The notes under the pieces were generated by a model, which had not been told where the DNA came from, did not search any database, and worked only from the letters and a program-made list of their open reading frames with translations. A stretch of DNA of 64,000 nt from a virus (Duplodnaviria > Caudoviricetes). The stretch spans positions 1-64,000 of the IMG/VR virus record IMGVR_UViG_3300035498_000404; one strand, 5' to 3'. The position numbers were made by a program, and so were the translations under genes. How positions within the stretch are numbered: position 1 is the stretch's first letter; each line of letters starts with the position of its first letter. This document shows positions 7,445-54,113 of the stretch, in pieces.

Positions 7445-7714
7445 ATTAACGAAGAATTTGAAAAGGCTTGGTAGATGATATATTTAAAATATCCAGAACT
7501 CATTGGAAAACTTCAACTCATAAATAATATAGATGAAGTCAAAAATGATGATTCTATCTATATTATATATAAAAATTATAATTTGTCAAGCGAAATATAT
7601 GCAAATCTTTATGTATATATAGTAAATGAGCTTGAAGACCTAGATGTAATGTTAGATTTCATAACTAAAAATGACATTTTAGGAGGAAAAGAAGATTGTC
7701 AAAAAATAAAGTAA
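7445..7714 (+). CDS. Hypothetical protein (start ATT 7445 with TAG readthrough, or ATG 7475)
   Basis: GAGGTGA RBS lies before ATT 7445, which is in frame through TAG 7472 with the ORF-track ORF. Confidence 0.55.
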
Positions 7715-14404: not shown

Positions 14405-14478
14405 AGAGAATATAGTGTAACAGTAACACGCGGACTTTGGGAGTCTGAGAAGCGGGGCAGCACCGATATTTTCTACCA
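14405..14478 (+). tRNA. tRNA-Pro(UGG)
   Basis: CGGAC-TTTGGGA-GTCTG anticodon arm; 3' ACCA; T loop GGCAGCA. Confidence 0.7.
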
Positions 14479-32792: not shown

Positions 32793-33099
32793 AGTGTATT
32801 GTCAAAATGACTTTATTAAATTAAGTAAATTGGTCAAATCCAATTATATTTTTTAGTGTTTCGGAGTATAAAATTACTGTTTTATTCATAAATGTGTATT
32901 CTCTTTTTTACGAAAATTAACTTTAATAAATAGACATCTTAAATTGACATTTTTTGTCAATATAAGTTTATCTTAAATTTGTTTAAGATTTAACTAGGTA
33001 AAATATCTCAGATTCGTTCTGAGATTTTTATAGGTTGAGACGTTCAACTTATTTATATCCGTGTTTTACTGATTTAATTATTGAAAAGGTGTGTTTATT

Positions 33100-34110: not shown

Positions 34111-34226
34111 TTAACTGGCGTTAATTTTTAAATAATGTGTACGGTGTGCGTATTTAGGTGTATCGCACTTGAATTGCTTTCCTTAATAGTGAGCCGTATT
34201 TATTATTTGAACAGGGGGAAATTGTA

Positions 34227-34571
34227 TTGGTTAGTATTGATTGTATTGGTAATGGTGTTGCTAAATTTGCAGACCGTGAAATTCTAAAGAATATTAATGG
34301 TTGGCAAAAAGTTGTTGTCGGTTCGGCAATCGCTCTTGCTATTAAGCGTGCTGGCAATATTGCTGCCTCATATAAAGACAACAAGGTTGTAAAGGCTCTT
34401 CAAATTATGGATGATGATTGTAACATTGATATTGACGTACTTAGAGATGTTGTTAAAGAAAATGTCCCTAATTCTGGATTTGTTGTTACAGTCCCGATTC
34501 TTGGAGAATTAAAATTTCATAAGAGTGATGTAGACAACCTGTACGAAGATATAACCTCGTTTGTCAAATAA
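34227..34571 (+). CDS. Hypothetical protein
   Basis: TTG start with GGGGG RBS; IDID..and IPxxGxxxF-type motifs. Confidence 0.7.
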   Translation: MVSIDCIGNGVAKFADREILKNINGWQKVVVGSAIALAIKRAGNIAASYKDNKVVKALQIMDDDCNIDIDVLRDVVKENVPNSGFVVTVPILGELKFHKSDVDNLYEDITSFVK

Positions 34572-34588
34572 ATAGTTAATGCGGAAGG

Positions 34589-34906
34589 TTGATTAACATG
34601 GTTGCAGATTCTTCTGAACTTGAACCAAAAGTGGTTCATCCTAAAGAAAAAGAAGCTACTTTAATGGATAAAGTATATGATAACTTTATCGACGAAGTTG
34701 GCGGTGTCACTGAATATTTAAATTTGGCAAAAGACTTTGATTATGATAATGACGATTATGTTTGTCAAGGACTTACATTAATTGCCAAAGACGAAGAATC
34801 TCATGCCAGATTCTTATATGACGTATTAAAACGTCGGCATTATGAAATTCCAGAAAAAGATATTGAAAAATATCATGAAATGGAGAGAATGTTTCACAAC
34901 TGGTGA
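34589..34906 (+). CDS. Ferritin-like helical protein (possible)
   Basis: DEVGGVTEY...IAKDEESHARF (ExxH metal-ligand pattern). Confidence 0.55.
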   Translation: MINMVADSSELEPKVVHPKEKEATLMDKVYDNFIDEVGGVTEYLNLAKDFDYDNDDYVCQGLTLIAKDEESHARFLYDVLKRRHYEIPEKDIEKYHEMERMFHNW

Positions 34907-35077
34907 GACACAAATTGGCTTCTTTGAAAAAGCTGACTATTTTTCTAAAAGAATAGATACTGTACTAAAATATTTTTCTTATGTTAGTAGAGTGTTTTAG
35001 TTTATAATAAAAATATAATGTTGTCCCAGTGATGAACTGGGACTTCTTTTTAAGTTTTAAAATTTAAGGAGAATTTA

Positions 35078-36616
35078 ATGATGACAAATTACAAGAAACT
35101 ATTTTCTTTAATCGCTTCTATTGTAATTGCCACCAATATTACTCTCGGCGCATTTGCGGCATCCGTTGTAGATATTAATACTGGCAATGAAGTAAAATTT
35201 GATACTGGAGAGCTACAAGAAGCTATTGATTATGCGCAGTCTCAAAGGATTGAAGATGGAGAAATTCACACAGTTACATTAACTACTGATGAAGTTTTAG
35301 ACGAGTCATTAAAAATTACTGATAGTGTTATTTTAGATTTAAATGACAATACATTAACTGTTGACGAAAATGTTAATGATAATGTTATTGATATAGAATT
35401 AGATAATGTTTCTGCGGTCATTATTGAAAATGGCACTATAAGTGGTGGAAATGACTATTATGGTGGAGGAATTCAAATTACCGATAATAATACCAGCGAA
35501 GACTTTACTGAAATTATTATTGATAATGTTACAATTACAAATAATTCTGCTGATTTTGGCGGAGGAATTTATGCTACTGGATTGTTAAATAATGGCAATG
35601 GAAATATTACTATTATTGACAGCGAAATCTCTGGCAATACTGCTATTGAAAATGGTGGCGGTATTAATATTATTGATTTTGAAAACGTAACAATAAAAGA
35701 TACAATTATTTCTGACAACACAGTTGAAGGATTTGGTGTTGGCGGTGGAATTTCTGTCGATGGAGTTTCCAATCTTGTTATTGAAGATTCTAAGATTAAT
35801 AATAACACTGTTGATGGTCAATTCGGATATGGTGGAGGAATTTATACTACTGACACTAATATCACAATTACTGGTAGTGAGATTTCTGAAAATGAAGCTT
35901 CATGGGGCGGTGGCATTTTGGGATTTGTAAGCAATATCACCTTAGATGATTCTGCTGCAATTTCTAATAATACTGCGACTAATTCTGGTGATGATATTTA
36001 TATTATTGCTAATGAATATTTTGAATCTACTATTACGTTAAATGTTCCTTCTGGAACTCTAAATTCTGACAATCAGAATATTGATGGTTGGTATGAAGAT
36101 GGCGTAGACGCTTATAACCCATTACGTTGGGGCGAGTATATTGAGGAACTAGACAGCAATTATTATTCCAAGGAAGAAAATACTGAATTAGTTCTCAATA
36201 ATGATTTAGCCTTAAAAGCTGCTCATGGAGAAATTATAGAAGAAATTGTTGACCCATCTGACGAAGACGATTCAGAACCAGAGTTGCCCAAAAAGGAAGA
36301 AAATTCTTTTGATAATGATGTAAACTATAAAGCTCCGGTCGCCACAATTGACGTTTCTTTTGATGTTGAAAAGCAGGATAAGGAAAACATAAAAGTAGTA
36401 GAAACACCAGAAGAACCAATTGAAGAAATTGTTGAAGTAATTGAAGACACTAACGAGATTGAAATTATCGAAGAAGAAGTTCCAAAAACCGAGTTACCTG
36501 TTGAAATTGACGGCAGTGTTCCTCGCACTGGCGACAACACATTTGTATGGGTTTGTCTAATTGTACTTTCCATCTCTGGTCTATTTTTGTTTAGAACTAA
36601 AAAGAACGAAGAATGA
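35078..36616 (+). CDS. Secreted beta-helix surface protein with a sortase-type anchor
   Basis: Signal peptide; repeated N-x-A-xx-GGGI (Pmp/pectin-lyase-like) repeats; acidic stalk; VPRTGD followed by a hydrophobic helix and RTKK. Confidence 0.85.
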   Translation: MMTNYKKLFSLIASIVIATNITLGAFAASVVDINTGNEVKFDTGELQEAIDYAQSQRIEDGEIHTVTLTTDEVLDESLKITDSVILDLNDNTLTVDENVNDNVIDIELDNVSAVIIENGTISGGNDYYGGGIQITDNNTSEDFTEIIIDNVTITNNSADFGGGIYATGLLNNGNGNITIIDSEISGNTAIENGGGINIIDFENVTIKDTIISDNTVEGFGVGGGISVDGVSNLVIEDSKINNNTVDGQFGYGGGIYTTDTNITITGSEISENEASWGGGILGFVSNITLDDSAAISNNTATNSGDDIYIIANEYFESTITLNVPSGTLNSDNQNIDGWYEDGVDAYNPLRWGEYIEELDSNYYSKEENTELVLNNDLALKAAHGEIIEEIVDPSDEDDSEPELPKKEENSFDNDVNYKAPVATIDVSFDVEKQDKENIKVVETPEEPIEEIVEVIEDTNEIEIIEEEVPKTELPVEIDGSVPRTGDNTFVWVCLIVLSISGLFLFRTKKNEE

Positions 36617-36704
36617 TAGAGTTGCCTACCATTTTATGGTAGGATTTTGTTATAAGCCCATAAGTATTTTGTATTTATGAGCTTATAATAGAAGGAGATA
36701 TTTT

Positions 36705-37211
36705 ATGAACGACGGAAAAAGATTTGAATAGAACTTTGCCAATTCTGTTCCAGAACATATATATTTTATGAGGATAAAAGATAGCGCAAATAATTTTGGC
36801 AAAACAAGTACTTCTAAATTTGCAACAGCCAATCCTTTTGATTGCTTTATATTTTACGAAGGGTATCTTATGCCATTAGAATTGAAGTCTACAAAAGGTA
36901 CAAGTTTCAGTATTCAATCTGAAAATCTTGAAAAAGGAAAGGATATAAAATATCACCAGATAGTTGAACTCGCAAAATCAAATCAATTTTAGAATGTTAT
37001 TTCTGGATTTGTTTTTGATTTTAGGATGTCTAACACATATTGGTTAAGCATTGATAATTTTTAGAAGTTTTTAAATAATACGACTAAAAAAAGTATTAAT
37101 GAAAATGATATTGTAAGATATGGCGGTATTTTAATAAATAAGAAAATAATGAGGGTAAATTATAAATATGATATACCTGAATTACTAAAAAGCATTTTAG
37201 AGGTGAATTAA
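36705..37211 (+). CDS. recU: RecU-like Holliday junction resolvase (3 TAGs)
   Basis: MNDGKRFE*NF...NPFDCF...LELKST...IKYHQI...KKSIN; needs readthrough at 36729, 36990 and 37062. Confidence 0.8.
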
Positions 37212-38240
37212 ATGGGTAGAGCAACTGTATATAATGATATATATTCAGAAGAAATATGGGAAAAAGTAAATATGGAAAACAAGGACTTACTAGATGACTT
37301 TGTTTCCTACAAAAGAAGTTCAGATAAGTCTCCGCAAACAATACATCAATACTATCAAATGATAAGATTGTTCTTTTGCTGGAATTATTCTAATAACAAT
37401 AACAAGTCTTTTATTTTTCTTAAAAAGCGTGACTTGGTAAGATTTTTTAGCCAAGCTGTTGAAGAATGGCAATGGAGTCCAAATAGAATCCATACAGTCA
37501 AATCTGCATTAAGTTCTTTAAGTAATTATATTGAAAATATCCTAGATGACGAATATCCTGATTTTAGAAATATTGTACAAAAAATTGAAGTTTCTGTAAA
37601 ACAGCCAGTTAGAGAAAAAACAGTTCTAACACAAGAACAAATTGATGAATGTCTAAAAACTCTTGTATTTAGAAAGAAGTATCAAACTGCTTGTTATTTA
37701 GCATTGGCGGTTGCTTCTGGCGCGAGAAAGTCTGAATTACTAAGATTTAAGGTAGATTATTTTAAAGACGAAAATATTAAGTTTGGATGTTTATATAAGA
37801 CACCAGAACAAATTAAGACAAAAGGTAGAAGTAGTAAGGGTAAAATGCTCTATAAGTATGTGTTTAAGAATGATTTTAAACCATATTTTGATTTGTGGAT
37901 GGAAGATAGAAAGAAAAAGGGCATTGAAAGTGAATGGCTCTTTGTTGTGAAAAATGGCAATGAGTACGTGCAAGCTAAAACCGGAAGTGCTGATAATTGG
38001 TGTAAAGAAATTAGTAATATTATTGGTGTTACCTTTTATAGTCACTCTGCACGACACGCTCTTTGTACTAAGTTAAGAGCGGCTAATTTACCAGACAAAA
38101 TTATACAGGAATTTTTTGGCTGGTCGAGTCTAGAGCTAATTAATATTTACGATGATTCTAGTAGAGATGCAGATTTCGGAAAATACTTTACAGAAGACGG
38201 TATTGCTGAGATTGAACAAACTACTGTAAATGATATATAA
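37212..38240 (+). CDS. Tyrosine recombinase
   Basis: SGARKSEL (Arg), HSARH, FFGW and IYDD (Tyr); SAM-like N-terminal domain. Confidence 0.9.
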   Translation: MGRATVYNDIYSEEIWEKVNMENKDLLDDFVSYKRSSDKSPQTIHQYYQMIRLFFCWNYSNNNNKSFIFLKKRDLVRFFSQAVEEWQWSPNRIHTVKSALSSLSNYIENILDDEYPDFRNIVQKIEVSVKQPVREKTVLTQEQIDECLKTLVFRKKYQTACYLALAVASGARKSELLRFKVDYFKDENIKFGCLYKTPEQIKTKGRSSKGKMLYKYVFKNDFKPYFDLWMEDRKKKGIESEWLFVVKNGNEYVQAKTGSADNWCKEISNIIGVTFYSHSARHALCTKLRAANLPDKIIQEFFGWSSLELINIYDDSSRDADFGKYFTEDGIAEIEQTTVNDI

Positions 38241-38263
38241 TTTGTGACAAAGGAGAGAAAATT

Positions 38264-38935
38264 ATGACATTTAATGATTTATATGATAAGTTAAACGCCT
38301 ATTCTTTAAAATTGATGTCAAAAGATGATTTTCATAAATTCTTAGAAGAAAATCTAACAATTAATACTTATATTCCTGTCATTCAGAAATATGCTTTAGT
38401 TGGTATTGTTGGGAAGATTTATAAAAATTCCGTTAAAGTTGAAGAAAACAGTGAGGATTTCTCTGCTGAATATATTTACATGAGATATGAAGTAATAAAG
38501 ATGTTCAATCTTTTATTCAAATATATTGATATGGTTGTTCCTGTCGAAAAGCAGACATTAAAGGATTATGACCTTGTTATGGAATCTGGTCTATATGACT
38601 TTATTGAATCAAGATGCCATAACGACTATCAATATCTCTCAAATATGTGCGACAAGATTTCTGGCGTAGATAATCTTCTTTTAGTACATGAATTTATTCA
38701 TGAAATTGGGGATAGATTTAGCGTTGAAAATATGAAAGAAATTCGTAAGGAACTTTCTAAGCTTGATATGCGTAAATTGAAATTACTAGAGAGCGTTGCG
38801 CAGTTTAACGACCCGATTACAGCAGAAGTTGCGAATGCTCTAAAAGAAAAGACGCATGAAGAAGTTTTTGAAGCACATAAAGAGGCGGCAGAAGAGAAGT
38901 CTGAGAATACTGAAACAAACACAGAAGAAAAGTAA
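38264..38935 (+). CDS. Hypothetical protein (possible tail assembly chaperone)
   Basis: ORF upstream of the tape measure gene; YIPVIQK and YDLVMESGL motifs. Confidence 0.65.
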   Translation: MTFNDLYDKLNAYSLKLMSKDDFHKFLEENLTINTYIPVIQKYALVGIVGKIYKNSVKVEENSEDFSAEYIYMRYEVIKMFNLLFKYIDMVVPVEKQTLKDYDLVMESGLYDFIESRCHNDYQYLSNMCDKISGVDNLLLVHEFIHEIGDRFSVENMKEIRKELSKLDMRKLKLLESVAQFNDPITAEVANALKEKTHEEVFEAHKEAAEEKSENTETNTEEK

Positions 38936-38945
38936 GTGATACCAA

Positions 38946-39545
38946 ATGGCTAAAAAGAGCAGCAAATTAAGCCGCAATTCATACCATACGTTGGGTAATA
39001 CCAATGCTTATAGAAAACTTACACAAAAGGTACAAGAAAAAGTTGATGAAGCGCAAAAAGAAATTGAAAATGCTCTAACTGATATTGGAGAGTAGACTGT
39101 AAAAAAGATAAAAGAATATGTTAAACTTTATTATTACAATGCTTATCCAGAGGGGGACAATTATAATCGACTTGAAGAAAAGGGTGGATTTTTGCATACA
39201 ATTTCTTACGAAGTAAATGTTTCTAATTTTTCAATTAAGATATATTGTGATTGGAGTTTACTAGCCGTTAGTGATAAACCAGACCCGAAGTTTCCTCACC
39301 ACTGGGAAAATGGTCAAGCATTTACTTATGGTTTATATGATTATATGATGTATGGTAGTTGGCCTTTTAGCCGTAGTAACCGAGTTATTCAAGCAGGATT
39401 TAGAGGCATTGACGAAGATATGACAAAAGAAATTAAAGATTTTCTTGACTGGTATGTTTCTGATTTGGTATCAGCACGATTAGAGAAACTAGGATTTAAT
39501 GTTAGTGGACTTAAACATGGTGCTTCTGTCTTGCGGTCTGATTAA
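38946..39545 (+). CDS. Hypothetical tail protein (TAG at 39093)
   Basis: ATG 38946 is in frame with ORF 39192 through one TAG. Confidence 0.7.
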
Positions 39546-39564
39546 TTTTAAGGAGGTGGGTTAA

Positions 39565-42500
39565 ATGGCTGAAAGTATAATATTTAATATAGGTATTGGT
39601 ATTGACGATACTGAAGTAAGACAGGATTTAACAGAAGTTACAAAACAAATACAAGAAGTTTTAAATACAGATTTAAAATTTAATATTAACGCGAATAATA
39701 TTGAGGAATTACAACAGCAAGTAGCTAATCTTGGCGGGCAATTAAATATAGTAAGAGACTCTGTAACTGGTCTTGCCACTGGATTTTCTGTAACGGCAAC
39801 CTCTATAACTGGGCAACTTGTAAATGTGGCTGGTAGTTTTTCAAATTTAAAAACTAGCGCTGATTCATATGTGGCATCTTTAAGTAGTATGCACGACCAA
39901 ATTTCAGGTCAAACAGGGGAACAAAAGGCAATAGCTCAAATTCAATAGGAGTATATTAGTTTATTACAAAAAGAAACTGACATTAAAGAAAAACTAGCTG
40001 TTGCAGTTCAAAATCAAGACACTCAACAAGTAAGTTCTTTGGCAAATCAGCTTGATAAAACTTAGACGTTAATGAACTATGATGCAGAACGACTACAACA
40101 AATACAGGGTATGTCAAATGCTGCAACTACTTTTAACGGTGTTTATGAGCAGATATTTGCAACCACATAGCAATTAGCTAACAGAAATAATGATGCAGAT
40201 GCGTTTTTAGGAACTGATGCTTCTCAAAGAATAATTGATGTTTCTACTAATCTTTCCCAGTTAGATAATACATTACAAGAATATTATTCTCTAAATCAAC
40301 AAGTTTAGAATACTGCTCCGGGAGAATATTGGGATTTATTAGACGCAAAATTAAAACAATTGCAACCAGAATATGATGCTGTTAAAACCAGTATGGAATC
40401 TTTGGGTGTTGTGTTTGCGAATGGTCAGGCTCAATATACTGGGACAGCAGAAGCAGTTCAACAATTAGTTGAAAGATATAATGAGTTAGAGCAACAACAA
40501 AAGGAAAACCAAGCTTAGAAAAATCAAGCTGCTACATATAAAGAAATTACAGATGCGGTTAAGGCTTATTATAAAGCGCTAACTGACGTTAAGAAATCTA
40601 ATAGCGTAGAAGGCTCTGAAACATACAAAGTATTACAGCAAAATTTAACCGCTGCTGCCAATGCTACTGTAACACTTAATGGGAAAACAACTCAATTACA
40701 AGATGTATTTTCTGCTCTTGGTATTACTATATCAAATTATGGTTCAAACTTTACTGCTGCATACAGTGGTAAAAGCCAAGAAATCCAAAAGATTGTTGAT
40801 TTAATTAATCAACAAAGTCAGGCTTACGCCAAGCTTAATGCTCAAAAAGCAGACCAAGCTTCTGATACTGCATTAATTGAAAGTGCCGTAGCGGCATATA
40901 AAAAGTATAGAGACCAATTAGATGTTGTTTATAAATTAAAGAAAAGTGGGAACACTGACTTTACAAGCAACCTAAAAGAAGAAGAAGAACTCTTAAAGCA
41001 GCTTAAAACTGCGTATGAACAAGAAGAACAAGCTCTTCTTAGTAACGGTCAAGAAGTACAGAAAAATACAACTTATAACCGTGATAAAAACCAAGTAACT
41101 AGAGACTCTATTCAGGCTCAAAAAGAGTTTGATTTAAGTTTAAATACAAATTCGCTACAAAATGCTATTGCCTAGACACTACAATACACTATTAGCTTGC
41201 AGGGCTTAAAGACTGCAATTAAAGAAGTTATAGATACAACTCTTGATTTGAACGAATCAATGACGCAAATTCAGCTTGTTACCCAACAAAATAATGATGA
41301 TGCTAAAGAATTAATTCAATCTTATTCAGAATTAGCTAAAAGTTTGGGTACTACAACTGCTGATATAGCTTCTGCAAGCGTTGAGTGGCTTTTTATTAGG
41401 TCACTATAAATCCATTTAACTGCGGGAAACCCCTTAGAGATTAACATACTAAAGGACGATAGAAATATACGTTCTGGCGAGAATAATTACCTCGGTATAG
41501 TAAAAACTGTTAATATTGGGCAATCCGCAACCAAGCCTCTAAAATAGAGGAAGGTTCATCGACTATCCCTTGGTTTCTAAAACGAAACAATAGGAGTACG
41601 GCCAATCGTTAAGGTGGGTGAAAATCCCTTAAATGGAAATGATGGATATTTTAAAGATATTTTAAAATTACTTGACAAAAAGTAATTTTTGTGATATAAT
41701 AGAATAAAGATATAGTCAATACTATGTAGAAATATATAGAAAATTCTGTTTACAGAATCTTTTGAAAAGTAACGATTTTCAGAAGTAATATAATAGACGG
41801 CAGGGCAACAGTATTGAGGAAACTAATGACTTAATTCAAGCGTCTGCAACGCTACAAGTCATTGGTAATATGGAAGCGTCGGATTCCGTAACAGCATTAA
41901 CAGCTTGATTTAGGCTGGGCATATAGTAATATATGCAATAATAAATTCTTTTAACTGCGGGAAACCTCTTAGAGATTAACATACTAAAATATAATAGGGA
42001 TATTATATTGGCGAGAATAATTACCTCGGTATAGTAAAAATTGTTAATATTGGACAATCCGCAACTAAGCACCAAGAACTGGTGAAAGCTCAACGACCAT
42101 CCCATAGGTTCTTTTCAGAACAACAGGAGTACGGCCAATCGTTAAGGTGGGTGAAAATCCCTTAAATGGAAATGGAGAATATCCTACTCTTAGGATAAAG
42201 ATATGGTCTTTTCTTATTAGAAATAATAAGGTGTTTATAAACACATATAAGATTAACGACCTTGTATAAAAATTAAAGGCTATCAACGGCTATGGATTAG
42301 AAGCTTCCGACGCAATGCAGATAGTAGACCAATTAACTACACTAGATTTGAAGTTTGCAGCTTCTTCCGGTGATATAGCGACAGCTCAACTATTAAGGGC
42401 TGGGTGTGCAGTAATGTACATAATAATAAATTCTTTTAACTGCGGGAACTTCCTTAGAGATTAACATACTAAAATATGATAGGAATATACATATTGGCGA

Positions 42501-45500
42501 GAATAATTACCTCGGTATAGTAAAAATTGTTAATATTGGACAATCCGCAACTAAGCACCAAGAACTGGTGAAAGCTCAACGACCATCCCATAGGTTCTTT
42601 TCAGAACAACAGGAGTACGGCCAATCGTTAAGGTGGGTGAAAATCCCTTAAATGGAAATGGAGAATATCCTAAAAATAATTATAAAAGACTTGACAAAAA
42701 GAAATAAATATGATATAATTACTGTTATAGGATAAAGATATGGTCTTTTCTTATTAGAAATAATAAGGTGTTTGTTTGTATTATGGAGATGAAAATGATT
42801 ATTTCAAAATTTGTAAATATAAGAATGGTTAGTCAAAATATTAAATATTATAGAGATTTGGGGTATGAATTTAATAACGGTGAAACAATTCCTATCAAAA
42901 TTGAAGATATTGGAAATGGAAATCGAGCATCCGTAAAGGTTAAATGTGACTATTGTGGGGATGAATATGAAGCACAATATGCAAATATTATGAATGGCAG
43001 AAAGATTTTAAACAAAGACGCTTGCAAGAAATGTGGGCATAAAAAGAGAGAAGAAATTTTGTTGCTTTTATACGGAGTAAAAAATCCTATGCAGTTGCAG
43101 GAAATAAAAAATAGGCAACAAGATTCATTGGAAGCTCATTACGGAGTGAGAGTTCCGGCAAAAAATAAAGATATTTCAAAAAAACAAGCAGAATCTTTTA
43201 AAAAATCTTATGGTATTGGTAGTGATGGATATGACGAGTATCAGACCAAACGAAGAAAAACCTGTATTGATAAATATAGCGTTGACAATGCCTCGAAATT
43301 AGAAGAATTTAAAGATAAAGCTGCGAAAACTTGTTTGGAAAAATATGGTGTAGAGCATCCATGTCAAAATCCAGACATTATGGAGAAATTTATAGAAACT
43401 TGCAATGAAAAATATGGTGTTGATTATTATTTGCTGACAAAGGATAAACAAATAAAAACCACAAAAACCTGTATGGATAAATATGGAGCAATAAATATTT
43501 CAAAAACTGATTATTGGAAAGAAAAGGTAAATAATTCAGTTATGGAAAGATATGGTACAAAATGGGTCGGAGAATCAAAAGAAATTCAAGATAAAATAAA
43601 GAAAACGAATATGGAAAGATATGGCGTTGAGTGCGTCTTTTCGTTGGAAGAAATTCGTTTAAAGTCAAGAAAAACTATGCTTGAAAAATATGGTTCAATA
43701 ATGCCCCAATGCGTTAGTTCTCAACAAAATTATATTCATAGTATATATGGTGGAGAATTAAATAAACAAATTGGAAAATATGTTGCTGACATTTTATTTA
43801 CAGATGAACGTATTGATTTTGAATATGACGGTGGAGGACACGATTTAAGTATTAGGCTTGGAGCTATATCTGAAAATAATTTTATAGACAAAGAAACAAT
43901 CAGGAATAATTATTTTATAAAAAATGGTTATAAAATTTTTAGAATTATTTCCAAAAAAGATAGATTACCAAACGATTCAATCCTTATCGAAATAAAAAAT
44001 AAAGCTTTTGAAGTTTTATTAAATACAGAAAATAATATTTATACTTATAATATAGATAATAACACAGAAGAATACAAACAAATCAATGTGGAATAACGAC
44101 CCACATTAAAAATTTATACTTTCTAAAGTTGCATCTGTGGCCTCACAATCCGGTGTTTCACTGGAAAAACTAGAATCAATTCTGGTTGTCACAGAAGACC
44201 AAACACAGCAATCGGCAGACACCATTAACAAAACAGTGGTGTATAAATCAATTCTAATATTTATGCGAAAATCCAGAGATGGACAACGCTTCGGAAGGTA
44301 AATTACCGCCGACAACGACTGAATGAATTGACCAAATTTATTTTGGATGCAACAGTCTGAACACATAATATAATCGAACAATGAAATATGTGAATAGGAG
44401 TCATTGGTAATCAGACCAATTAAAGAAGAACTTCTATCGCCTACTATAAAGTAGGTCACAAAAGTAACAGAATGTGGTAATGCTAAATGTTCTTGGCATG
44501 GCACATAGTAATATGTGCAATAATTAATCCCTTTAATTGCGGGAAACCCCTTAGAGATTAACATACTAAAATATAATAGGAATATTATATTGGCGAAAGT
44601 AACTATTTCGGTATAGTAAAAATTGTTAATATTGGGCAATCCGCAGCTAAGTGTTCAGAACGGACAAAAGTTCATCGACTATCCAATAGCTTTCAAATAA
44701 GCAACAGGAGTACGGCCAATTGTTTAGGTGAGTGAGAATCTCTTAAATGGAAATGGGGGACATCCTATTATTTAGGATGAAGATATAGTCAAAACTTGTT
44801 AGAAATAATAAGAACTTATATTAAAAATATAAATCATTGAAAGAATCTTATTTTTAATATAGGTTGCATAAAAATAACGAACTTATGTTAATTAATTGTG
44901 GAACAGTATTTTTGCCAGAATGTCGAAAATTGCTGCTGGTAAAGACCTTGAAGACACCGAGGTAACGCTAAATGATGTCGATAAGGTCTTAACCAAAATG
45001 AATATTAGTCTAAAGGATGAACAGGGTCAAATTCGTGACCTTGACGATGTTCTTGACGAAGTTGCAGGTCGTTGGGACACCTTTACGACAAATGAAAAGA
45101 ACCAAATTAGTACGGCTATCGCGGGCACACGACAAGCCAACTATTTTAAGGCCGCAATGGCCGACTGGGGAGAAGTTCTTGACGGTACGCAAATTGCATT
45201 AGACGCAAATGGTACGGCCACAGAGCGTATGGGTATTTATACCGAATCCCTAGGAGGTAAAATTAAGACCTTAAAGGCTACTTGGGAAGAATTTGTAGCC
45301 GATTTAAATTTGGACGATGTTATCTCTAATGTAATTAGTACAGCACAAAATCTATTAGAGATTTTTGATACTATAATAAATAAAAGCGGTGTTTTAAGTA
45401 CCGTAATTAAAGGAGTTCTTGTTGCACAAGGACTAAATATTTTATCTGGCGCTGTTGTAAAGGTTCTTGGTACACTAACTGGTAGTGGTGGATTATTAAG

Positions 45501-48500
45501 CGGCCTTATTAAACTTGCTCAGATAGCCCCTGAACTTTCTGAATTTGCAAGTTCTATAAATAGCGTCGCTGACGCACAAACTGCTTGGGCTTTAATTACT
45601 GGTGACGGTATTTTAAAAATAATCCCAAATATACTCACTCTACTTGGTGGTTCTGGTGGTCTTGTTGCTATTCTTGGAACTCTTGCTGGTACTATTGCGA
45701 TTGTGGTTGCGGCAGTTGCCGCATTTAAATATGCTTGGGAAAATTGGTTGCCTACGCAAGCAAATGCAAATCGGCAACTAGAAGAAGCACAAGAAGAATT
45801 AGAGAATACCTAGTCAGAACTTAATGATGTAATATCAAAATTAGAAGATGTTCAATCTCAAATTGATGATTTAAATAGTAAAGATACTTTATCTATTACA
45901 GATAAAGAGCAATTAGATATATTAAAGAAGCAAAGTGAAGAACTTGAAATACAAAAGTCTACACTTGAAGAAATGGAAAGAATCAAGCAGCAAGGCGTTC
46001 TTGATGCCAATATAAATAATCAAAATACCAAGAGTAATTTGTTTAGCTTTAACTTAGAAGATGGCCTAACAATAAATACTGCATATAACAAGAGCTTAGA
46101 AGAGCTTATATCTACATATAAGACATTGCAGATTGTTGTTGATAAAACTGGCGATTCACTTGGAACTTTTGAGATTTATGGTGATGAATTACAAGACAGA
46201 TACGATAAAGCTAATGCGACCATAAATCAATATCTCCAAATGGAGCAATCTGGTTTATTAACCACTAAGTATTATACTCAAGCCCAACTTGATTCTTACC
46301 AAGAAGCTTATGATAACGCTATTAATATTCGTAATTAGATTCTTGAAATTTTAAATCCTGAACAATTTAAGAAGCTTAAAATTGAAGAAGCTCTTGACAC
46401 AAGTGGTTTCAAGGGTATTGAAACAACAATTAACAACTTAAATATTAAGTTAAAAAATGGCGAAACAACATTTGAAGAATATTCCGAAGCTGTTCGTGCG
46501 GCATTAACAAAATTAGCACAAAACGACGATTTTAAGAATCTTCTTGGTGATATATTTACAGAAGATGAATTAAATGACACAGAAGCTCTCGTAGAAGAAC
46601 TTGTTGGGTATCTTGATGTACAAACTAATGCTATTGTTGATGATGTCACTGATGCCCAAAATGAAATTGTCGAATCTTTTGAGGGCTATGCCGACGGAAT
46701 TAAAGAAGTAGAATCTTCTTATGAAACACTAAAAGATGCAGTAGACAGTTATAATAGTAGTGGTACTATTACAGCTAAACAACTAGAAGAATTGTTGGCA
46801 CTTGACCAAGATTATTTAAATACTTTAAGTTATGAAAATGGTCAAATTAAGATAAATGGAGAAGCTATTAGTTCTTTAAAAGAAGAACAATTAGCTCTTT
46901 ATAAACAACAACTTCTTACCGCTGCTTCTGCTGAAATTTTGGCTCGTGCGCAAGAAGTAAACAATCAAATAGAAGAGGATTCTATTACTGATGCTTATGA
47001 GCTAAGAGAAGCCAATTTCCAATTAAAAAATGGGCATATTGAAGCCGCAACAGGTGCTTCTGTGCAAGCGGTTGCCGAAGCAGATTTACAGACGCAATTA
47101 ACTGGTGTTGCTGCTAGTGCTGGACTTACAACTGAGGCAATTCAAGACATTATAGATAAATATACTGCTCTATATGCTTTAGGAGAAAATGTATCTGGTT
47201 CTGGTTCTTCTTCTAGTAGTAGTTCAACTAACGCTGCTAAAACTGCTTATGAAAATGAAAAAGCCAGATATGAACTGCTTGAAAAAGAAGTAGAATTAGA
47301 GAAAGACAAATTAGAAGCCCAAAAAGATGGAGTGAAAGCAGAAGAAACTCTGCTTAAAAATAAAAAATCCGAATTAGAGCTTCAAAAACAAATCAAAGAA
47401 CAACAACTTGACACTATACAAGATTCCGAGGAAGATATTACTGATTTAATTGAGTATGTCGAAAAGATGCTTAAACAACAGTACGAAGACCTCAAAACGA
47501 ATCTTAAAAAGGTAAAAGAGTATGTTACTACTTGGCGTGACGCATTGTCTGATGCAAAAGATAGTTATGACGATATTACGGCTGCTATCGAGAAGCAAAT
47601 GAAAGCTCAAAAAGAGCAAAATGACAATGAAAAGGCTCTAAAAGAAAAAGCGGATGCTGTTTCTGACGTTCAGGAACAATTGGCTGCTATTCAGTATGAT
47701 ACTTCTTCTGATGCTGCTACTAAGCGCGTCGAGTTACTAAAAGAACTTAATGATGCACAAGAGGCACTGACAGAAGAAGCACAAGACCAAGCATATGATT
47801 CTGCTCTCGACCAATTAGACGCTGCTCAACAAAAAATTGATGATATTTTCGACTTTATTGACGAAGCGTTGGAAGACGCAGAAGATGCTATTGACGATTA
47901 CGTTGACTATATTTCTAATACTTTAGAATCTGAAGGCAATCTGTATAAAGAGGCGTTGGCAGAAGTTCAATCTGCAATTGACGGTAACAATGACGAATTA
48001 TTGCAAAAGCTTTATAAGTGGAACAGCGCGAAATGAATGCGCTGTATAAATCGGGTTATATGCTGGAACACCCTAAAGACTTTAATACTAAAAAGTAAAA
48101 ATTTAAAGTATGTTACAATGGGCAATCAGCAGGGAAGATAAGTTCACCCTCAACGACTATGGGAATATCCCACTAATATATAAGTAATTATATATTAGAA
48201 CCCCGATAAGGCATAAGCCGAATGATATAGTCTGAACTTCCATAGAAATATGGAGAATTGGGCAGAAATGACCCAATATTTTTGTGTTAGTATTTTAAAA
48301 ACAAAACCAATTTTATTTTTTAGTATGACACAAAAATTAACAAAATTGATATGGAGACAACATTGCTGAAACCATTACAAAAGCTTGGAATGATGCTCTT
48401 GACGCTGTTGAAAAATACAAAGATGCAACTGGTGAAACTAATCTGCAAAATATCCGTGAAGGATTACAAATGCAGGATACCACTCTTAGTGCAGAAATTG

Positions 48501-49624
48501 CAGCATTTGACACACAAATTGATGCCTTGCAAAATCAGATTGATGCAAAAGAAATAGAGATTGATGCTCTTGAAGTCTTAATTGATGAAAAAGAAGCAGA
48601 AATTGACCAGATTAAAATGGCTCTTTCTCAGCTTGAAATTAACTACGATGCACAAACTGTCGCAAGTAATAATGCTACAAAAGCTACATGGGACGAAGTA
48701 TATGCTCTTATTGGGCAAACTGCTGCTACTACTGATAATACTACTGCAACAGAAAATAATACCGACGCAACTAGCACCAATACAGATAAGACAGGCGACA
48801 ATACTACTGCTGTTGAAGATAATACAACTAAGGTTGAAAACGCAACAGACAAGGTAGAAGATTTGTCTTATAGCACGGATGTTGCTTCTGACAAAGTTGA
48901 CGCAGCAGCACAGTCTGCTGATGACGCTTCTGACGCACTGTCTGGTGCTGATAGCCTAGCCGACGCAGCTTCTACGACCAAGGACGCAATTAGCGACCTA
49001 GGAGAAGCCTCTGTTGTTGCGGCAGATAAACTTGCTGGTGGAGATGGAACTGGTAGTTCTAGCGATTCTAGCGGCACTACAACGAGTTCTGAAACCAGTG
49101 GAATTTTAGACCTTATTAGTTCTGGAGTTTCTTACTTTACTGGTGGAACAGATGCCGGAACTGTTATTGGTAATCTACTAGCGAGATATATTCCAAAACT
49201 GGTTAATACTGGTGTAAAGTACGCAATTAAGAAAGTATCTTCTAACCATGATGGTACAAATTGCGTTGAAAAGAGTGATTCTCCGCTTGATGACTTGTTA
49301 GGACTTGGCTCTGACGAAACTGCTCGTGTGCTAAAAGTTGGAGAAACTGTTGTTCCTAACTACGCAAGTGATGTTAAGATTCAGCAAACCGATGAACCGT
49401 TTACCACTTCTATTGATTCTCCGAATGCTTCTAATGTTTCTACTAATAATGGTGGAGACTTCAATCTTGACATGGGAGATTTAGATATTTCTGGAATTGA
49501 TAGTGACGAGTTAATGAGCCAGTTAAAGAGCTTAAAGAAAGACTTCGCTGATGAGGTTTATTCTACTATTAATAAGCATATTAAAATTGGTGGATATAGA
49601 AACGTAAAGAATAGTTACATTTAA
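39565..49624 (+). CDS. Tape measure protein, 7 exons: 39565-41390, 41797-41905, 42279-42386, 44119-44225, 44475-44484, 44899-48029, 48349-49624; at least 8 TAGs; about 2188 aa
   Basis: Splicing gives a continuous TMP core VEWL|RQGNSIEE...ALTA|AINGY...DIATA|LSKVAS...ADTI|GNA|WNSIFARM and WNSA|YGDNI; exons total 6567 nt, in frame. Confidence 0.88.
41391..41796 (+). mobile_element. Group I intron TMP-I1
   Basis: P1 GUGGCU/GGUCAC; P7 GACUAU/AUAGUC; ends in G; internal sigmaA promoter at 41672-41700. Confidence 0.88.
41906..42278 (+). mobile_element. Group I intron TMP-I2
   Basis: P1 CAGCU/GGCUG; P7 GACCAU/AUGGUC; ends in G; core nearly identical to TMP-I3. Confidence 0.88.
42691..42719 (+). promoter_or_regulatory. 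Intron-internal sigmaA promoter driving the endonuclease ORF
   Basis: Perfect TTGACA-17-TATAAT in the P8 loop, about 60 nt upstream of the ORF. Confidence 0.8.
42768..44096 (+). CDS. Intron-encoded homing endonuclease with a Vsr-like (EDxHD-type) C-terminal domain and tandem (E/D)KYGV repeats
   Basis: CDYC/CKKC zinc finger; about 9 TxxEKYGV-type repeats; VADILF...IDFEYDGGGHD...GYKIFRI; start may be ATG 42783. Confidence 0.8.
   Translation: MFVCIMEMKMIISKFVNIRMVSQNIKYYRDLGYEFNNGETIPIKIEDIGNGNRASVKVKCDYCGDEYEAQYANIMNGRKILNKDACKKCGHKKREEILLLLYGVKNPMQLQEIKNRQQDSLEAHYGVRVPAKNKDISKKQAESFKKSYGIGSDGYDEYQTKRRKTCIDKYSVDNASKLEEFKDKAAKTCLEKYGVEHPCQNPDIMEKFIETCNEKYGVDYYLLTKDKQIKTTKTCMDKYGAINISKTDYWKEKVNNSVMERYGTKWVGESKEIQDKIKKTNMERYGVECVFSLEEIRLKSRKTMLEKYGSIMPQCVSSQQNYIHSIYGGELNKQIGKYVADILFTDERIDFEYDGGGHDLSIRLGAISENNFIDKETIRNNYFIKNGYKIFRIISKKDRLPNDSILIEIKNKAFEVLLNTENNIYTYNIDNNTEEYKQINVE
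44226..44474 (+). mobile_element. Group I intron TMP-I4 (compact, different family)
   Basis: P1 CACCAU/GUGGUG; P7 GACUG/CAGUC; ends in G. Confidence 0.82.
44485..44898 (+). mobile_element. Group I intron TMP-I5
   Basis: P1 AUGCU/GGCAU; P7 GACUAU/AUAGUC; ends in G; homologous to I1-I3. Confidence 0.88.
48030..48348 (+). mobile_element. Group I intron TMP-I6
   Basis: P1 ACAGCGC/GCGCUGU (C-G at the splice site); UGCUGGAAC and AAUCAGCAG core; P7 GACUAU/AUAGUC; ends in G. Confidence 0.8.
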
Positions 49625-49635
49625 TTAGGACACTA

Positions 49636-49668
49636 GCCCGCTTTGAAAGATAAGCGGGCTTTTATTTT
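49636..49668 (+). terminator. Terminator after the tape measure gene
   Basis: AGCCCGCTT/AAGCGGGCT followed by TTTTATTTT. Confidence 0.8.
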
Positions 49669-49678
49669 ATAAAGGTGG

Positions 49679-50593
49679 TTGGAGAGTATGCCTGTAATGG
49701 GGTGTCCATTTATTTTTAATGAAATACCTTCCGAGGCATATAACGCCTCTTTAGTATTTTTGGAAGAACAATATACGAAACGTCCTTCTGGTGGACAAAA
49801 ACAATTTACTACGGATAATGTCAGAGGAAATTCAAGAGCAATTCTATTAGATGTTTCTCAAACAGAACCTTTGAGTTTCGGAATTGAAATTGTGTTTGAT
49901 GACCCAGTAGATATTCAAACTTTAACACAAGTTAAAAATTGGTTATGTTCTCCTTTAAAATATTGTAAACTTAGAATTTGTGCAGAGGGTTTTGAAAATT
50001 ATTATTATAATTGTTATATAAACCTAGATAATGATTTAATTTATAATGGTGGCTATCGTGGAGTTACTGGTACAGTAACTTGTGATGCACCTTGGGCTTG
50101 GGAAAACGAACAAACTATTGATTTAGAAATTGGGACATCGACTGTCCCTGCTGAAAATAGATTTTTAAATTACTCTCAGGACGCAAATCCGATGAAACCG
50201 ATTATTTCATTCACTGTGACAGAATCAAATTCAGATTCATTTTTGGCGATTGAAGATGTATTTGAAGATTCTAATGGGAATATTATATACGACAAGACTA
50301 CAATATTTGTTTCTTCTAATGCAAAAACATATAAGCAAAAGAATGGAGAAATTGTAGAATATAGTATAACAAATAATTGTTACAATCTTGTAAGTGGTGA
50401 ACAAATAACATTTAATAACCAAACGGCGTTACTGACTTCTTCTGTGAATCAACTTTTTAGAATTAATAATTTTAATAAAGTTTTTCTTAGAATCCCACAA
50501 GGAGTAAACAAACTTTATGTGTCTGGATTAAATATATCTAATTTAAAAATGACTTATACTAATGCTAAGAGATTAGGTGGTGGTTGGTATTAA
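49679..50593 (+). CDS. Distal tail protein (Dit-like)
   Basis: Follows TMP; VKNWL, TCDAPWAW and FLRIPQGVNKL motifs. Confidence 0.8.
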   Translation: MESMPVMGCPFIFNEIPSEAYNASLVFLEEQYTKRPSGGQKQFTTDNVRGNSRAILLDVSQTEPLSFGIEIVFDDPVDIQTLTQVKNWLCSPLKYCKLRICAEGFENYYYNCYINLDNDLIYNGGYRGVTGTVTCDAPWAWENEQTIDLEIGTSTVPAENRFLNYSQDANPMKPIISFTVTESNSDSFLAIEDVFEDSNGNIIYDKTTIFVSSNAKTYKQKNGEIVEYSITNNCYNLVSGEQITFNNQTALLTSSVNQLFRINNFNKVFLRIPQGVNKLYVSGLNISNLKMTYTNAKRLGGGWY

Positions 50594-53500
50594 ACAGAAC
50601 TTTGATTTCAATGGTTTATATGAAAATCCTTTATTGGAGCTTTGCAATCCAGATAAGAGACAAATTGGTATCTTAGCTAATGTGAAAAACTTAAAATTAA
50701 GTTTAAGATATAATAATATATCCGAAATGTCGTTTACTATTTATGCTAAAATAAACGATGTAGATTATCCGTATTATGATTTAGTAAGAAAGATGCGACT
50801 AATTCATGTTGAAAATATGGGATATTTTGTTATTTCAGAAATAAATGAACATTTTGAATATGACGTCCCTTATAAGGAAGTTTCTTGTTATTCGGCAGAA
50901 TACTTGTTAAATTATAAACCGATAAATATTTGTACTACAACACTAACATCTAGTTCTAACGCTGTATATAATAAAAGTTTTAAATTCTATGATAAAACCT
51001 ATCCTGATGATACATTAATGTATCAATTGTTTAATGGATTTTTTGATTGGAAATTTGACGCAACAGATTTGGATGAAGACTTAATGGGGCAATACCGTTC
51101 TTTTAGTGATACTGGTGATGGCCTATATGGATTTTTACAAAATTATGTTGCTTCCGCATATGAATGTGTATTTATTTATGATATTGAAACATTTACTGTA
51201 AAAGCATATAAAACTTCTGAAATTGTGAATTAGACAGATATTCTTTTTACTTTTGATAATTTAATTAAAAGTGTTGACATGAAAGAATTGTCTGATGATA
51301 TTTGTACAGTATTATCTGTTTCTGGTTCTGACCAATTGCCATTGTCTTTGATTAATCCTACTGGAACAAGTAATATTTACAATTTTAATTATTACTTACA
51401 AGACAAATACGATTCTTGGATTGGTAAAGATGTATATGCGATAGATGATAAAGGCAATACAAGACTTGATTCTAATGGAAATAAGATACTTTTAAAAGAT
51501 TATGTATGTGATTGGCAGGAAAAAATAAAGACATTAATTTACAGCTCTAATGAAGAAGGCTCTTATGCGCAATTACTTTCGGACAGAGCATATTTTAATT
51601 CTCAATATAACTTATTGTATGCAAAGTATGTTGAAGCTACTACAATTTCTAATTATCTAACAGAAGCAATTTCAACATTTAAAGAAGAAGAAAAAACTGC
51701 TAAAAAAACTGGATGGGGTATGCTTCTTTTAGGTGTTGCTTTAATTGCTGGTGCTGTTGGAATTTTTGTTGCAACTGGTGGTAGTGGCGCTGAGGCTTCT
51801 GCTGCAATGGTTGAAAAAGGTACAGAAGTTTTGATTAGCTGGGGAGCTGCCGAAGGAACTGCTGCTACAATTGCATCATATATTCCTCTTGCCATAAGTA
51901 CAACTGTTAACGGACTTACTACTTCTGGTTTTATTAGTATAGGAAGCGCGCTTACTACTTATTTTCCGCAAGTACAATCTATTAAGATTACTAAAGATGA
52001 ATGCCAAACTCTTCTTAATATAGCAAATGATAACGCTGCATTATTGTTTGGTAATGACAATAATGGATATGTTAAAAATCTTGATTCTACGACCGCCGCA
52101 AATGCTGTTGGCGGTTTATCAACTATCTCTATTGTAAATGAAAACAGTTTATATATTTGCGGAGATTCTTCTGGCATAGTGAACCTATCCCAAAGAAAAC
52201 CAGATTTAAATTCTGAAACAAGTATCGCAAAATATTATTCCATGAGCGTACTAGCTCAAAAAATAGCTCAGATAGACGCAAAAATTGAGGAATATGTTAC
52301 AACTTATGGTTACAATTATTATTTTTCTGAATCTGAAAGAAGAATTCTTGAACCATTTTTAATTCAAAGCGAATATACGGACGAGGCATTTACTGCTACG
52401 AGTGATGTTACAATTGATGATGATACTGATTTAACTCAATACATTACAACAACTCAAGGAGTAATGACTATCCAAGAATTTTTGTATAGAGAACAAGGAT
52501 ATTATTTTGATTTTTATACTGAATCAAGTACATCAACTTGGAATGCTAATCCTGTTAAATTTATTCAAGAGAATTTTAGAAATTCTGTTGGAGCAGATAG
52601 TAATAGTGAAGGAACTTATATTTTAACTTATAATGGTAAAAGTTGGGATATGACTGGTTCTTTGAAAAGTTCTGGTATGAAAATTGGTAATTCAGTTGGT
52701 ATACTAGATAATTCTTCTGCCGCCAATTATAGTTTTGTTTCTGGCGATTATATTGCTATAAGACTATATAATCCAGATATAGAGATGGTTAATACGACTA
52801 CTATCGCAATGCAGCTTGCACAACAAGCATATAGCGTTATAGATACGGTTAGTCAGCCAGCATTTTCTTTTAGTATGAATACATCTAATTTTGTATTTCA
52901 AAAAGAATTTACTCCTTGGCTAGACCAAATTGGATTTGGTAGTAAAAAAGCCAGAAATGAATATCTTGGTTTTGGTACTGTTGTTAATGTCGAATTGGAA
53001 AACGGAGAAGTATTACAACCCTTCTTACAGGAAATTGATATTGATTACGAAGATTCGACTTCTATTGAAATGACATTTGGTAATAAATTTAATTTAGGCA
53101 CTTCCGAATGGACACTTGGAGATTTGATAAGTGAAAATACTTCTACTATAAACAGAGTAACTCGTGCGCTTATTGGCACTTCTTCTTCTGGAATGTCAAC
53201 TTCTGTTTCTTCTATTTCAAGCGATACAACAAGTACGCTTCAAGCATTAAATGGTGCTACCACACAAATTGTTGCCACACAAGCCGAAATTAATTCGCAG
53301 ATTGAAAATAATGCGGAAACATTCGCTAAAGGTATGGCAAATGGTATGGCATTGTATAGCACAACAAAAGAAGAAGGAACATATTTTCATGATAATGAGA
53401 ATCTTGAAGATAGTAACACCGTATATTTATTTAATGATTTCGGACTTTCTTTTACAAAAAATTATAATCATGGAAATACAGAATGGGACACTGGCATTTC

Positions 53501-54113
53501 GGCAGACGGAAGTATGATATTACATTCTCTTACTGTAAATCAGATTACTGCCGACCAAATAAGTGCTGGGGCTATTGAAGCTGATAAAATAGCAGCCAAT
53601 GCAATTACTGCCGGAAAAATTTCTACAAATGCTATATATGCGGACAATCTGAGAAAAGATGCAGTGTTTAAATTATATTGGTCTAATTCCAGTGTACGTG
53701 ATTGGAGCACAACTAAAATAACAAATTCAGGTATAGACCTCAATAATTTTGATGGGTGCATTGTATTTTGTTCAGATTATTACGATGGAAAATATATCGG
53801 TTCTAGTTCTGCAATTGGAGTTAAAGACAAAACAACTGCTGCATTCGGAAAAGATTCAAATGGGTGGTATGGTGGTGGCACTATTACACAAAGAGGATTC
53901 ACAATGCGTTCTGATGGAATTTATATGGATAATGGATATTATTTTTCTCATTATGTTCATACTGTTCATTCTTTGAATTGGCACGTAACACAGGCGTTTG
54001 GTATATTTGATGTAATAGGTGATATATTAGACACCGCTGCGCATCCTACATGGCAGAAGTCATCTACTGCTTGTGTTCCACAAGCAGTTTACGTATTTAG
54101 GATGGGGGTTTAA
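50577..54113 (+). CDS. Large tail/baseplate hub protein (Tal-like), about 1178 aa via TAG 51231
   Basis: ORFs 50577 and 51279 join in frame; INPTGTSNIYNFNYY; ITADQISAGAIEADKI repeats. Confidence 0.8.

Follow-up and report, generated by a model that had tools for sequence, protein, structure and literature searches.

A tape measure protein gene of an uncultured TAG-recoded phage predicted to be interrupted by six group I introns, with a pair of them flanking a 10-nt exon

The tape measure protein (TMP) gene of phages is a known host of group I introns. In prophages of the Bacillus cereus group, introns termed TMP-IVS1, IVS2, and IVS3a/b are found at three sites of this gene (Tourasse & Kolsto 2008, PMC2504315), and in Vibrio phage ICP1 the TMP is spliced, the gene having been called a frequently interrupted one (PMC10448857). 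As summarized in later papers, orf142 of Staphylococcus phage Twort contains three group I introns, with a 23-nt exon between two very similar introns and with exon skipping (Landthaler & Shub 1999, via PMC10136302, PMC3073962). Two group I introns likewise flank a 34-nt exon in the Coxiella burnetii gene for 23S rRNA, as summarized in PMC10136302, and the title of another report describes one of them as lacking the canonical terminal G (Raghavan et al. 2007, title in PMC11270868). Intron-dense phage genomes include those of the crAss-like Zeta group, in which the capsid gene is in five fragments, up to 14 introns are found per genome, and stop codons are recoded (PMC7886860), and those of the Jug phages, which carry an average of 18.5 introns each (PMC12880540). 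The present analysis concerns a 64,000-nt stretch of DNA (the window), the first 64 kb of the 102,894-bp IMG/VR record IMGVR_UViG_3300035498_000404, which derives from a metagenome and belongs to an uncultured TAG-recoded phage. Its subject is the interval 39565-49624.

This interval is very probably a single TMP gene of a siphovirus-type, TAG-recoded phage, divided into seven exons by six group I introns (Table 1). Under the standard bacterial code (table 11), the interval is broken into scattered short open reading frames (ORFs). Reading TAG as sense (Gln) opens the long frames 39565-41409 and 44896-48036, with 48470-49624 open already; table 4 (TGA as Trp) was rejected, as the frames stay closed. 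Once the intron spans are removed, the exons join into 6567 nt that can be read as a single frame of 2188 codons, eight of them TAG, up to one terminal stop. The introns follow nt 1826, 1935, 2043, 2150, 2160, and 5291 of the coding sequence; five of them lie inside 334 nt, and the first four are spaced 109, 108, and 107 nt apart. Exon boundaries were derived from the collinearity of homologues in tblastn, together with a U before each intron and a G at the intron end. Although derived independently, they reproduce exactly the exon lengths and the 2188-aa product of a first-pass annotation made from the sequence alone, which had also placed five introns within about 335 nt and the first four about 108 nt apart. 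Internal repeats among the exon-encoded peptides, tested as a cause of the ~108-nt spacing, were not significant.

The boundaries are evident by comparison with uninterrupted homologues. A protein search with exon 6 retrieved P0001-P0004, uninterrupted proteins of 1884-2090 aa that are 46-49% identical (best local match) and carry PF10145. Compared with the window by tblastn with TAG read as Gln, these four matched in collinear pieces with no query residues missing: residues to 503 end at 41391, residues 504-539 correspond to 41798-41905, 540-575 to 42279-42386, and 576-613 to 44119-44232, and those from 615 and from 1684 start at 44899 and 48344, respectively. Exon 1 aligns with residues 1-503. 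The spliced protein, which the first-pass annotation had expected to run continuously against intron-less TMPs, does so with no junction gaps; its global alignment to P0001-P0004 is gapless at all six junctions, that to the TMP of the relative L003 is gapless across junctions 1-5, and the spacing in the distant homologues P0007, P0008, and P0018 agrees across junction 6. A start of exon 6 at 44905 and an end at 48035, as obtained by counting back from the stop, were rejected, because they create a TGA at the exon 6-7 junction and lose a conserved Trp-Asn.

Identification of the product as a TMP is consistent with its domain matches, length, and position upstream of Dit/Tal genes. Pfam PF10145 is matched piecewise by single exons, each below threshold (positions 65-99 by exon 3 and 150-201 by exon 6), and exon 6 matches six PHROG tape-measure families. 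Downstream of the gene lie Dit (49679-50590) and a minor tail protein (50562-54110). At the rule-of-thumb value of roughly 1.5 angstrom per residue, a product of 2188 residues would correspond to a tail of about 330 nm.

A close relative, L001 (IMGVR_UViG_3300035521_000126), is ~95% identical to the window over 32807-51716 and carries intron-less alleles at two sites. In L001, exons 1, 2, and 3 are contiguous, introns 1 and 2 being absent exactly at the predicted junctions; the only junction change is synonymous and falls in the Leu codon split by intron 1. Because L001 reads straight across both predicted junctions, introns 1 and 2 are precise insertions. Intron 3 is present in L001 with its ~1.26-kb endonuclease gene deleted and both ORF ends left, and intron 4, the 10-nt exon 5 (the decamer), intron 5, and intron 6 are kept almost base for base. 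Spliced by the same rules, the L001 TMP forms a clean 2185-codon frame with one stop. Between the window and L001, the ratio of nonsynonymous to synonymous substitution rates (dN/dS) is 0.21 for exon 1, 0.16 for exons 2-5, 0.11 for exon 6, and 0.047 for exon 7. All exon blocks are thus under purifying selection, and values of 0.05-0.21 across the exons therefore argue that all are translated in one frame in both phages. Comparison of the two phages also supports the reading of TAG as Gln, because five of the seven TAG sites that vary between them are TAG/CAA swaps; four TAG codons are shared.

Relatives additionally carry a seventh intron at a site that is vacant in the window (44969/44970, ACGCT/AAATG), 71 nt into exon 6. 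The introns at this site in L001 (10072-10359, 288 nt) and L003 (9674-9999) are homologous and interrupt the same codon, and L005 has one as well; the TMPs of L003 and L005 are ~40% identical and otherwise uninterrupted across the intron cluster. The guide of the seventh-site intron covaries with the local exon, being CGCU/GGCG in L001 and GUCCCU/GGGGAC in L003. Both features expected of mobile introns, exact-site presence/absence polymorphism and an intron-encoded endonuclease, are thus found at this locus, the function of the intron 3 endonuclease being predicted from family matches.

Group I membership was assessed with Rfam RF00028, for which the gathering score is 50 bits. Introns 1, 2, 3, 5, and 6 align to the full model (positions 1-253), intron 6 with 49.4 bits at 47990-48255 (E 1e-11, 411-nt scan). 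A P1 helix with the splice site on top was found for all six introns, with a U.G pair at the splice site in introns 1-5 and a terminal G in introns 1, 2, 4, 5, and 6. The P1 assignments and 3ʹ ends given by Rfam are wrong here: the true 3ʹ splice sites lie 48-94 nt beyond the model end, or ~1.35 kb beyond it in intron 3 with its endonuclease gene, and in introns 1 and 3 the Rfam P1 falls on a repeated exon motif.

Table 1. Exons, introns, and the intron-encoded gene of the TMP locus, in window coordinates
Feature	Position	Strand	Description
TMP exon 1	39565..41390	+	1826 nt; 6 in-frame TAG; ends GAGTGGCT
Intron 1	41391..41796	+	406 nt; RF00028 41361-41739, 70 bits; P1 GUGGCU/GGUCAC; U at -1; terminal G
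TMP exon 2	41797..41905	+	109 nt; tblastn P0002 residues 504-539, 69% identity
Intron 2	41906..42278	+	373 nt; RF00028 41897-42230, 62 bits; P1 CAGCU/GGCUG; terminal G; no endonuclease gene
TMP exon 3	42279..42386	+	108 nt, in phase; 78% identical to P0002 residues 540-575
Intron 3	42387..44118	+	1732 nt; RF00028 42354-42767, 58.7 bits; P1 CAGCU/GGCUG
Predicted intron-3 homing endonuclease gene	42768..44096	+	442 codons from GTG; first ATG 42783; no TAG
TMP exon 4	44119..44225	+	107 nt; LSKVASVAS... aligns with LSRVASSAS... of P0001-P0004
Intron 4	44226..44474	+	249 nt; compact group I; P1 ACACCAU/GUGGUGU; U at -1, U.G; terminal G
TMP exon 5 (micro-exon)	44475..44484	+	10 nt; TGGTAATGCT
Intron 5	44485..44898	+	414 nt; RF00028 44485-44812, 69.4 bits; P1 AUGCU/GGCAU; terminal G
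TMP exon 6	44899..48029	+	3131 nt; 2 TAG; aligns with P0002 residues 615-1699
Intron 6	48030..48348	+	319 nt; P1 ACAGCGC/GCGCUGU; C at -1; terminal G
TMP exon 7	48349..49624	+	1276 nt including stop; aligns with P0002 residues 1684-2083

Several observations weigh against this gene model. Intron 4 gave no Rfam match even at E<=10, and the seventh-site introns fail the Rfam threshold (17.6 bits with RF00028 for that of L001). Intron 3 ends ...AAAAAUUUAUA/CUUUCU in both the window and L001, so that its terminal base is A 44118, and intron 6 follows C 48029, which is paired with a G atop a perfect 7-bp P1. No close relative lacks intron 4, 5, or 6; for alleles without intron 4 or 5, an IMG/VR pattern scan gave no match and a metagenome scan gave only 40%-identical relatives. 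The junctions of introns 4-6 therefore rest on distant homologues (~39-50% identical) and on RNA pairing. Finally, ARAGORN found no tRNA with a CUA anticodon in the whole 102.9-kb record.

Intron 4 nevertheless has a recognizable group I architecture. For 44215-44490, the minimum free energy structure (z = -3.5) gives P1, P3, P4, P5, P6, P8, and P9, and the centroid structure gives P7. P3 (UCAAUUC/GAAUUGA) encloses P4, P5, and P6, and P7 (GACUG/CAGUC) is the pseudoknot alternative; the core reads AACGACUGAAUGA...AUGCAACAGUC, and the classical R and S elements are matched by its P7-J7/3-P3ʹ-P8-J8/7-P7ʹ segment. With a pattern made from the P7-to-P7ʹ segment, 48 loci were found in IMG/VR, and positions that this pattern did not constrain covary fully in them: in every locus P8 forms a perfect hairpin, of variable sequence, the R or Y in P7 has its complement, and the upstream heptamer that precedes UAAU is complementary to P3ʹ. 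In an alignment of 23 sequences including intron 4, 98.9% of cells are paired and 23 of 31 pairs (P3 to P8) are compensatory; none of 500 shuffles was as good, and slid partners gave at most 46.5% pairing. Eighteen loci of the family were scanned with RF00028 and none reached threshold, which argues that the model does not cover this class. Intron 4 thus belongs to a genuine and widespread class of phage group I introns that escapes Rfam, with the core AACGACUR-AAU-P3ʹ-P8-AUGYRAYAGUCUGA (loci L006-L053, L001, and L003). At least 13 of the 48 loci lie inside TMP genes, most of their break sites being at or near window residue 744/745 and others at 796/797, ~643, and 720/721. A conserved group I core was thereby found for each of the six introns that the first-pass annotation had so classified, five by RF00028 and intron 4 by family covariation. 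Introns 4 and 6 show no sequence relation to the other introns or to each other.

Introns 1, 2, 3, and 5, by contrast, are 79-94% identical to one another: intron 1 is 79-83% identical to introns 2, 3, and 5, intron 5 is 80-83% identical to introns 1-3, and intron 2 and the core of intron 3 are 94% identical over ~320 nt. Repeats as similar as introns 2 and 3 can mislead short-read assemblers, and the copies might have been collapsed or duplicated during assembly. Such an artefact is exceedingly improbable, however, given that the flanks of each copy are unique and agree with the alignment of homologues, that introns 1 and 2 are bounded by exon sequence collinear with L001, and that the independent assembly L001 (and L002, from within intron 4 on) reproduces introns 3-6 and the micro-exon base for base. 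The four introns are very probably copies of a single intron, spread through the gene to insertion sites that end in GCU.

The guide of each paralogue fits the end of its own 5ʹ exon. Introns 2 and 3 have the same target, ACAGCU; beyond these six bases, the target sites of the paralogous introns are unlike one another. Because the sites are alike only in six bases, a spread limited by P1 pairing, whether by reverse splicing or through selection following ectopic insertion, is favoured over recognition of a long endonuclease site. The copies may have moved by reverse splicing or by relaxed homing. Among them, only intron 3 still has a predicted homing endonuclease gene, the intron consisting of a group I core (42387-42767), the endonuclease ORF, and a 22-nt tail ending in A. 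The ORF matches Pfam DUF7487 (3e-43) and PHROG 12131, annotated as a homing endonuclease (3e-50), and also, weakly and below threshold, a treble-clef zinc finger and DUF559. The 3ʹ tail of intron 2 aligns with that of intron 3 around the former endonuclease stop codon, so that intron 2 looks like a copy of an endonuclease-deleted intron 3. A scan for further copies of the intron 2/3 lineage gave only an unrelated phage. Locus L044 carries a different, endonuclease-bearing intron exactly at the intron 5 site.

The placement of the 10-nt exon is constrained by both protein and RNA. Exon 4 ends ...GACACCAU and exon 6 starts UGGAAC, and homologues have Ile-Gly-Arg-Ala-Trp-Asn at this position. The decamer TGGTAATGCT supplies the last base of the Ile codon followed by Gly-Asn-Ala, giving TIGNAWNS (TIGRAWNS in P0001-P0004, IVGTSFKT in L003) with no gap and with the length seen in homologues; the peptide predicted to span this region reads ...SADTIGNAWNSIFAR. 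The decamer is preceded by G 44474 and is identical in L001. The guide of intron 5, GGCAU, pairs with the terminal 5 nt of the decamer (AUGCU) and has the same position relative to P2 as the guides of introns 2 and 3. The decamer would thus be the 3ʹ exon of intron 4, with its last five bases contributing the P1 helix of intron 5, and because it serves one intron as 3ʹ exon and the other as P1, either intron may be able to splice first. A 7-nt micro-exon (terminal G 44477) was rejected, as the conserved Gly would be lost.

It is very improbable that there is no micro-exon and that 44226-44898 (or 44227-44898) is one composite intron, yielding a protein without Gly-Asn-Ala. Exons 4 and 6 do share a reading frame, U 44226 and G 44898 could be used as ends, and Rfam detects a single ribozyme in this stretch. 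However, a composite intron would take three residues out of the best-conserved motif of the TMP, in which P0001-P0004, L003, and other homologues show no gap; the guide GGCAU pairs with the AUGCU ending at 44484, as in the paralogues of intron 5; and intron 4 has its own complete P1-P9 fold with the terminal G 44474. A minus-strand ORF at 44106-44639 (177 aa), which overlaps exon 4, intron 4, and intron 5 and has no family match, was discarded as spurious.

A terminal G is the rule for the second step of group I splicing, and a U.G wobble is usual at the 5ʹ site; introns 3 and 6 depart from these rules. Intron 2 has the expected G at the position aligned with the final A of intron 3. The in-frame TAA at 44107-44109 sets the earliest possible start of exon 4, and the nearest G upstream of the end of intron 3 precedes this stop. 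Every G-preceded 3ʹ site farther downstream (44128, 44131, 44137, and 44139) was rejected, because it breaks the frame or deletes the conserved LSKVASV. The core of intron 6 and its adjoining exon bases are 100% identical in L001 and L002, whereas the exons otherwise differ by ~5%; differences in intron 6, including single-base indels, are confined to its 3ʹ tail. This identity suggests either recent transfer with co-conversion or strong constraint.

Canonical ends can be drawn for intron 6, which would then follow U 48034 (position -1) and terminate in G 48356. They keep the frame (giving ...NSAKYNIAETI) and obey both the U rule and the G rule. They are nonetheless very unlikely to be the ones used: they remove the Tyr-Gly-Asp encoded right after G 48348, they make the Tyr-Trp spacing two residues shorter than in P0001-P0004, P0007, P0008, and P0018, and no guide complementary to GAAAU lies downstream, in contrast to the perfect 7-bp P1 ACAGCGC/GCGCUGU.

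The departures might also mean that the gene is decaying, with intron 3 and/or intron 6 no longer splicing, in a defective phage or in one whose downstream exons do not belong to one protein. Both introns break the most conserved splice-site rules, and the viability of the phage is not evident from a metagenomic record. Decay is still very unlikely, as the exons after introns 3 and 6 are strongly purified between phages that have diverged by ~5% (dN/dS 0.05-0.16) and both phages keep one uninterrupted spliced frame; moreover, a self-splicing bacterial intron without the canonical terminal G has been published, according to its title (Raghavan et al. 2007, title in PMC11270868). Because the downstream exons are under purifying selection, introns 3 and 6 would have to splice; intron 3 is accordingly predicted from sequence to ligate after an A, and intron 6 to cleave after a C.

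Exon 3, as had been noted before, is in phase (108 nt). Skipping of this exon would be plausible in terms of mechanism, given that introns 2 and 3, at 94% identity, have a common guide sequence and target hexamer; the two similar introns of Twort orf142, which skip a 23-nt exon (PMC10136302), are a parallel. The product would lack 36 residues in the TMP domain with the highest conservation. The fullest interpretation of the locus combines these points: introns 3 and 6 would be natural group I ribozymes that function despite breaking the two best-conserved rules for splice sites, no exon used jointly by two group I ribozymes would be known that is shorter than the 10-nt one (P10 partner of one and P1 of the next), and introns 2 and 3 may skip exon 3. 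This combination is put forward tentatively, with slightly less than an even chance of being correct.

Overall, a ~10-kb precursor transcript would be processed by six independent group I ribozymes that excise themselves, and the seven joined exons would form the 6567-nt message for the 2188-aa protein, with its eight TAG codons read as Gln. In these comparisons, homologue collinearity and intron-less alleles mark the boundaries, and a group I fold or family membership is indicated for each intron; splicing is predicted to be autocatalytic and efficient.

Elsewhere in the record, group I matches lie at 9319-9561 (44.7 bits), 9602-9875 (58.5 bits), and 10224-10487 (68.4 bits), clustered between the ORFs 7696-9375 and 11024-11695, and at 19451-19751 (52.8 bits) and 33189-33418 (31.6 bits). 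The 103-kb record thus holds at least 11 candidate introns including the six in the TMP gene, and the genome appears to be intron-rich. A tRNA-like match at 14406-14474 (Rfam, 31.6 bits; not reported by ARAGORN) was rejected as a CUA suppressor, since, as folded, it seems to have UGG in the anticodon loop and an irregular T arm. A 342-aa ORF (37212-38240) without TAG codons matches tyrosine integrase families (PHROG 1, 6e-30); its location immediately upstream of the tail genes is unusual. Directly after the TMP stop codon, at 49625-49667, a GC-rich hairpin (AGCCCGCUU...AAGCGGGCU) is followed by a U run; it is terminator-like and has a weak Trp-leader match.

The locus is informative in several respects. 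Introns and TAG recoding together cause standard gene callers to split the TMP gene into about ten meaningless ORFs, and the same failure probably holds for many uncultured phages. Together, the window and the 95% relative provide a series made by nature: sites with and without an intron, one copy that has its endonuclease gene and one that has lost it, and four paralogues with retargeted guides. This series documents the way in which one intron multiplies in one gene. For the study of splice-site choice by neighbouring ribozymes, compact substrates are available in the 10-nt exon, the A that ends intron 3, and the C at the 5ʹ splice site of intron 6.

The first-pass annotation considered six introns in one structural gene an extreme load, compared with the usual one or a few per gene, mostly in nucleotide-metabolism genes. 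The dense pile-up stands, but its rarity was overstated, as TMP introns and intron-dense phages have been published (PMC2504315, PMC10448857, PMC7886860, PMC12880540). Precedents have been published for each element of the locus, from introns in TMP genes and the presence of related introns at more than one site of a gene to exon skipping and short exons that separate introns. The TMP introns of the B. cereus group are the closest in kind. They occupy the same host gene at several sites, related introns (80% identical there) are found at different sites with P1 and guide adapted to each, different introns can share one site, and deletion of the endonuclease gene leaves ORF remnants. However, of the three sites in those prophages, one or two are occupied per named prophage, whereas here there are six introns and a seventh in relatives, and neither a micro-exon nor stop-codon recoding is mentioned in PMC2504315.

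Twort orf142, as described in the later accounts, is similar in having several introns in one phage gene, near-identical neighbours, and a very short exon shared by two ribozymes. Here, in contrast, there are six introns, the 10-nt exon lies between unrelated lineages, and the near-identical pair flanks a 108-nt exon; splicing in Twort was shown experimentally according to those accounts, whereas here it is inferred from sequence. In Coxiella, introns of different subgroups likewise have a short exon between them, and one, to judge from the published title, lacks a terminal G, as intron 3 appears to. The terminal base of that Coxiella intron is reportedly an A. The Coxiella introns differ in residing in a bacterial rRNA gene with a 34-nt exon, as opposed to a phage protein gene with a 10-nt exon. 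The crAss-like and Jug phages resemble this one in being uncultured or from the gut and in carrying numerous group I introns in late genes that are essential, the crAss-like case also with TAG/TGA recoding; the present 103-kb tailed phage belongs to a different lineage, and none of the examples described in those papers has as many introns in one gene. Nothing here alters what is known of mobile group I introns. The TMP gene analysed here is an extreme but recognizable case of an already known accumulation of selfish RNA elements, of which the 10-nt exon and the two non-canonical splice bases are the parts that merit experiment.

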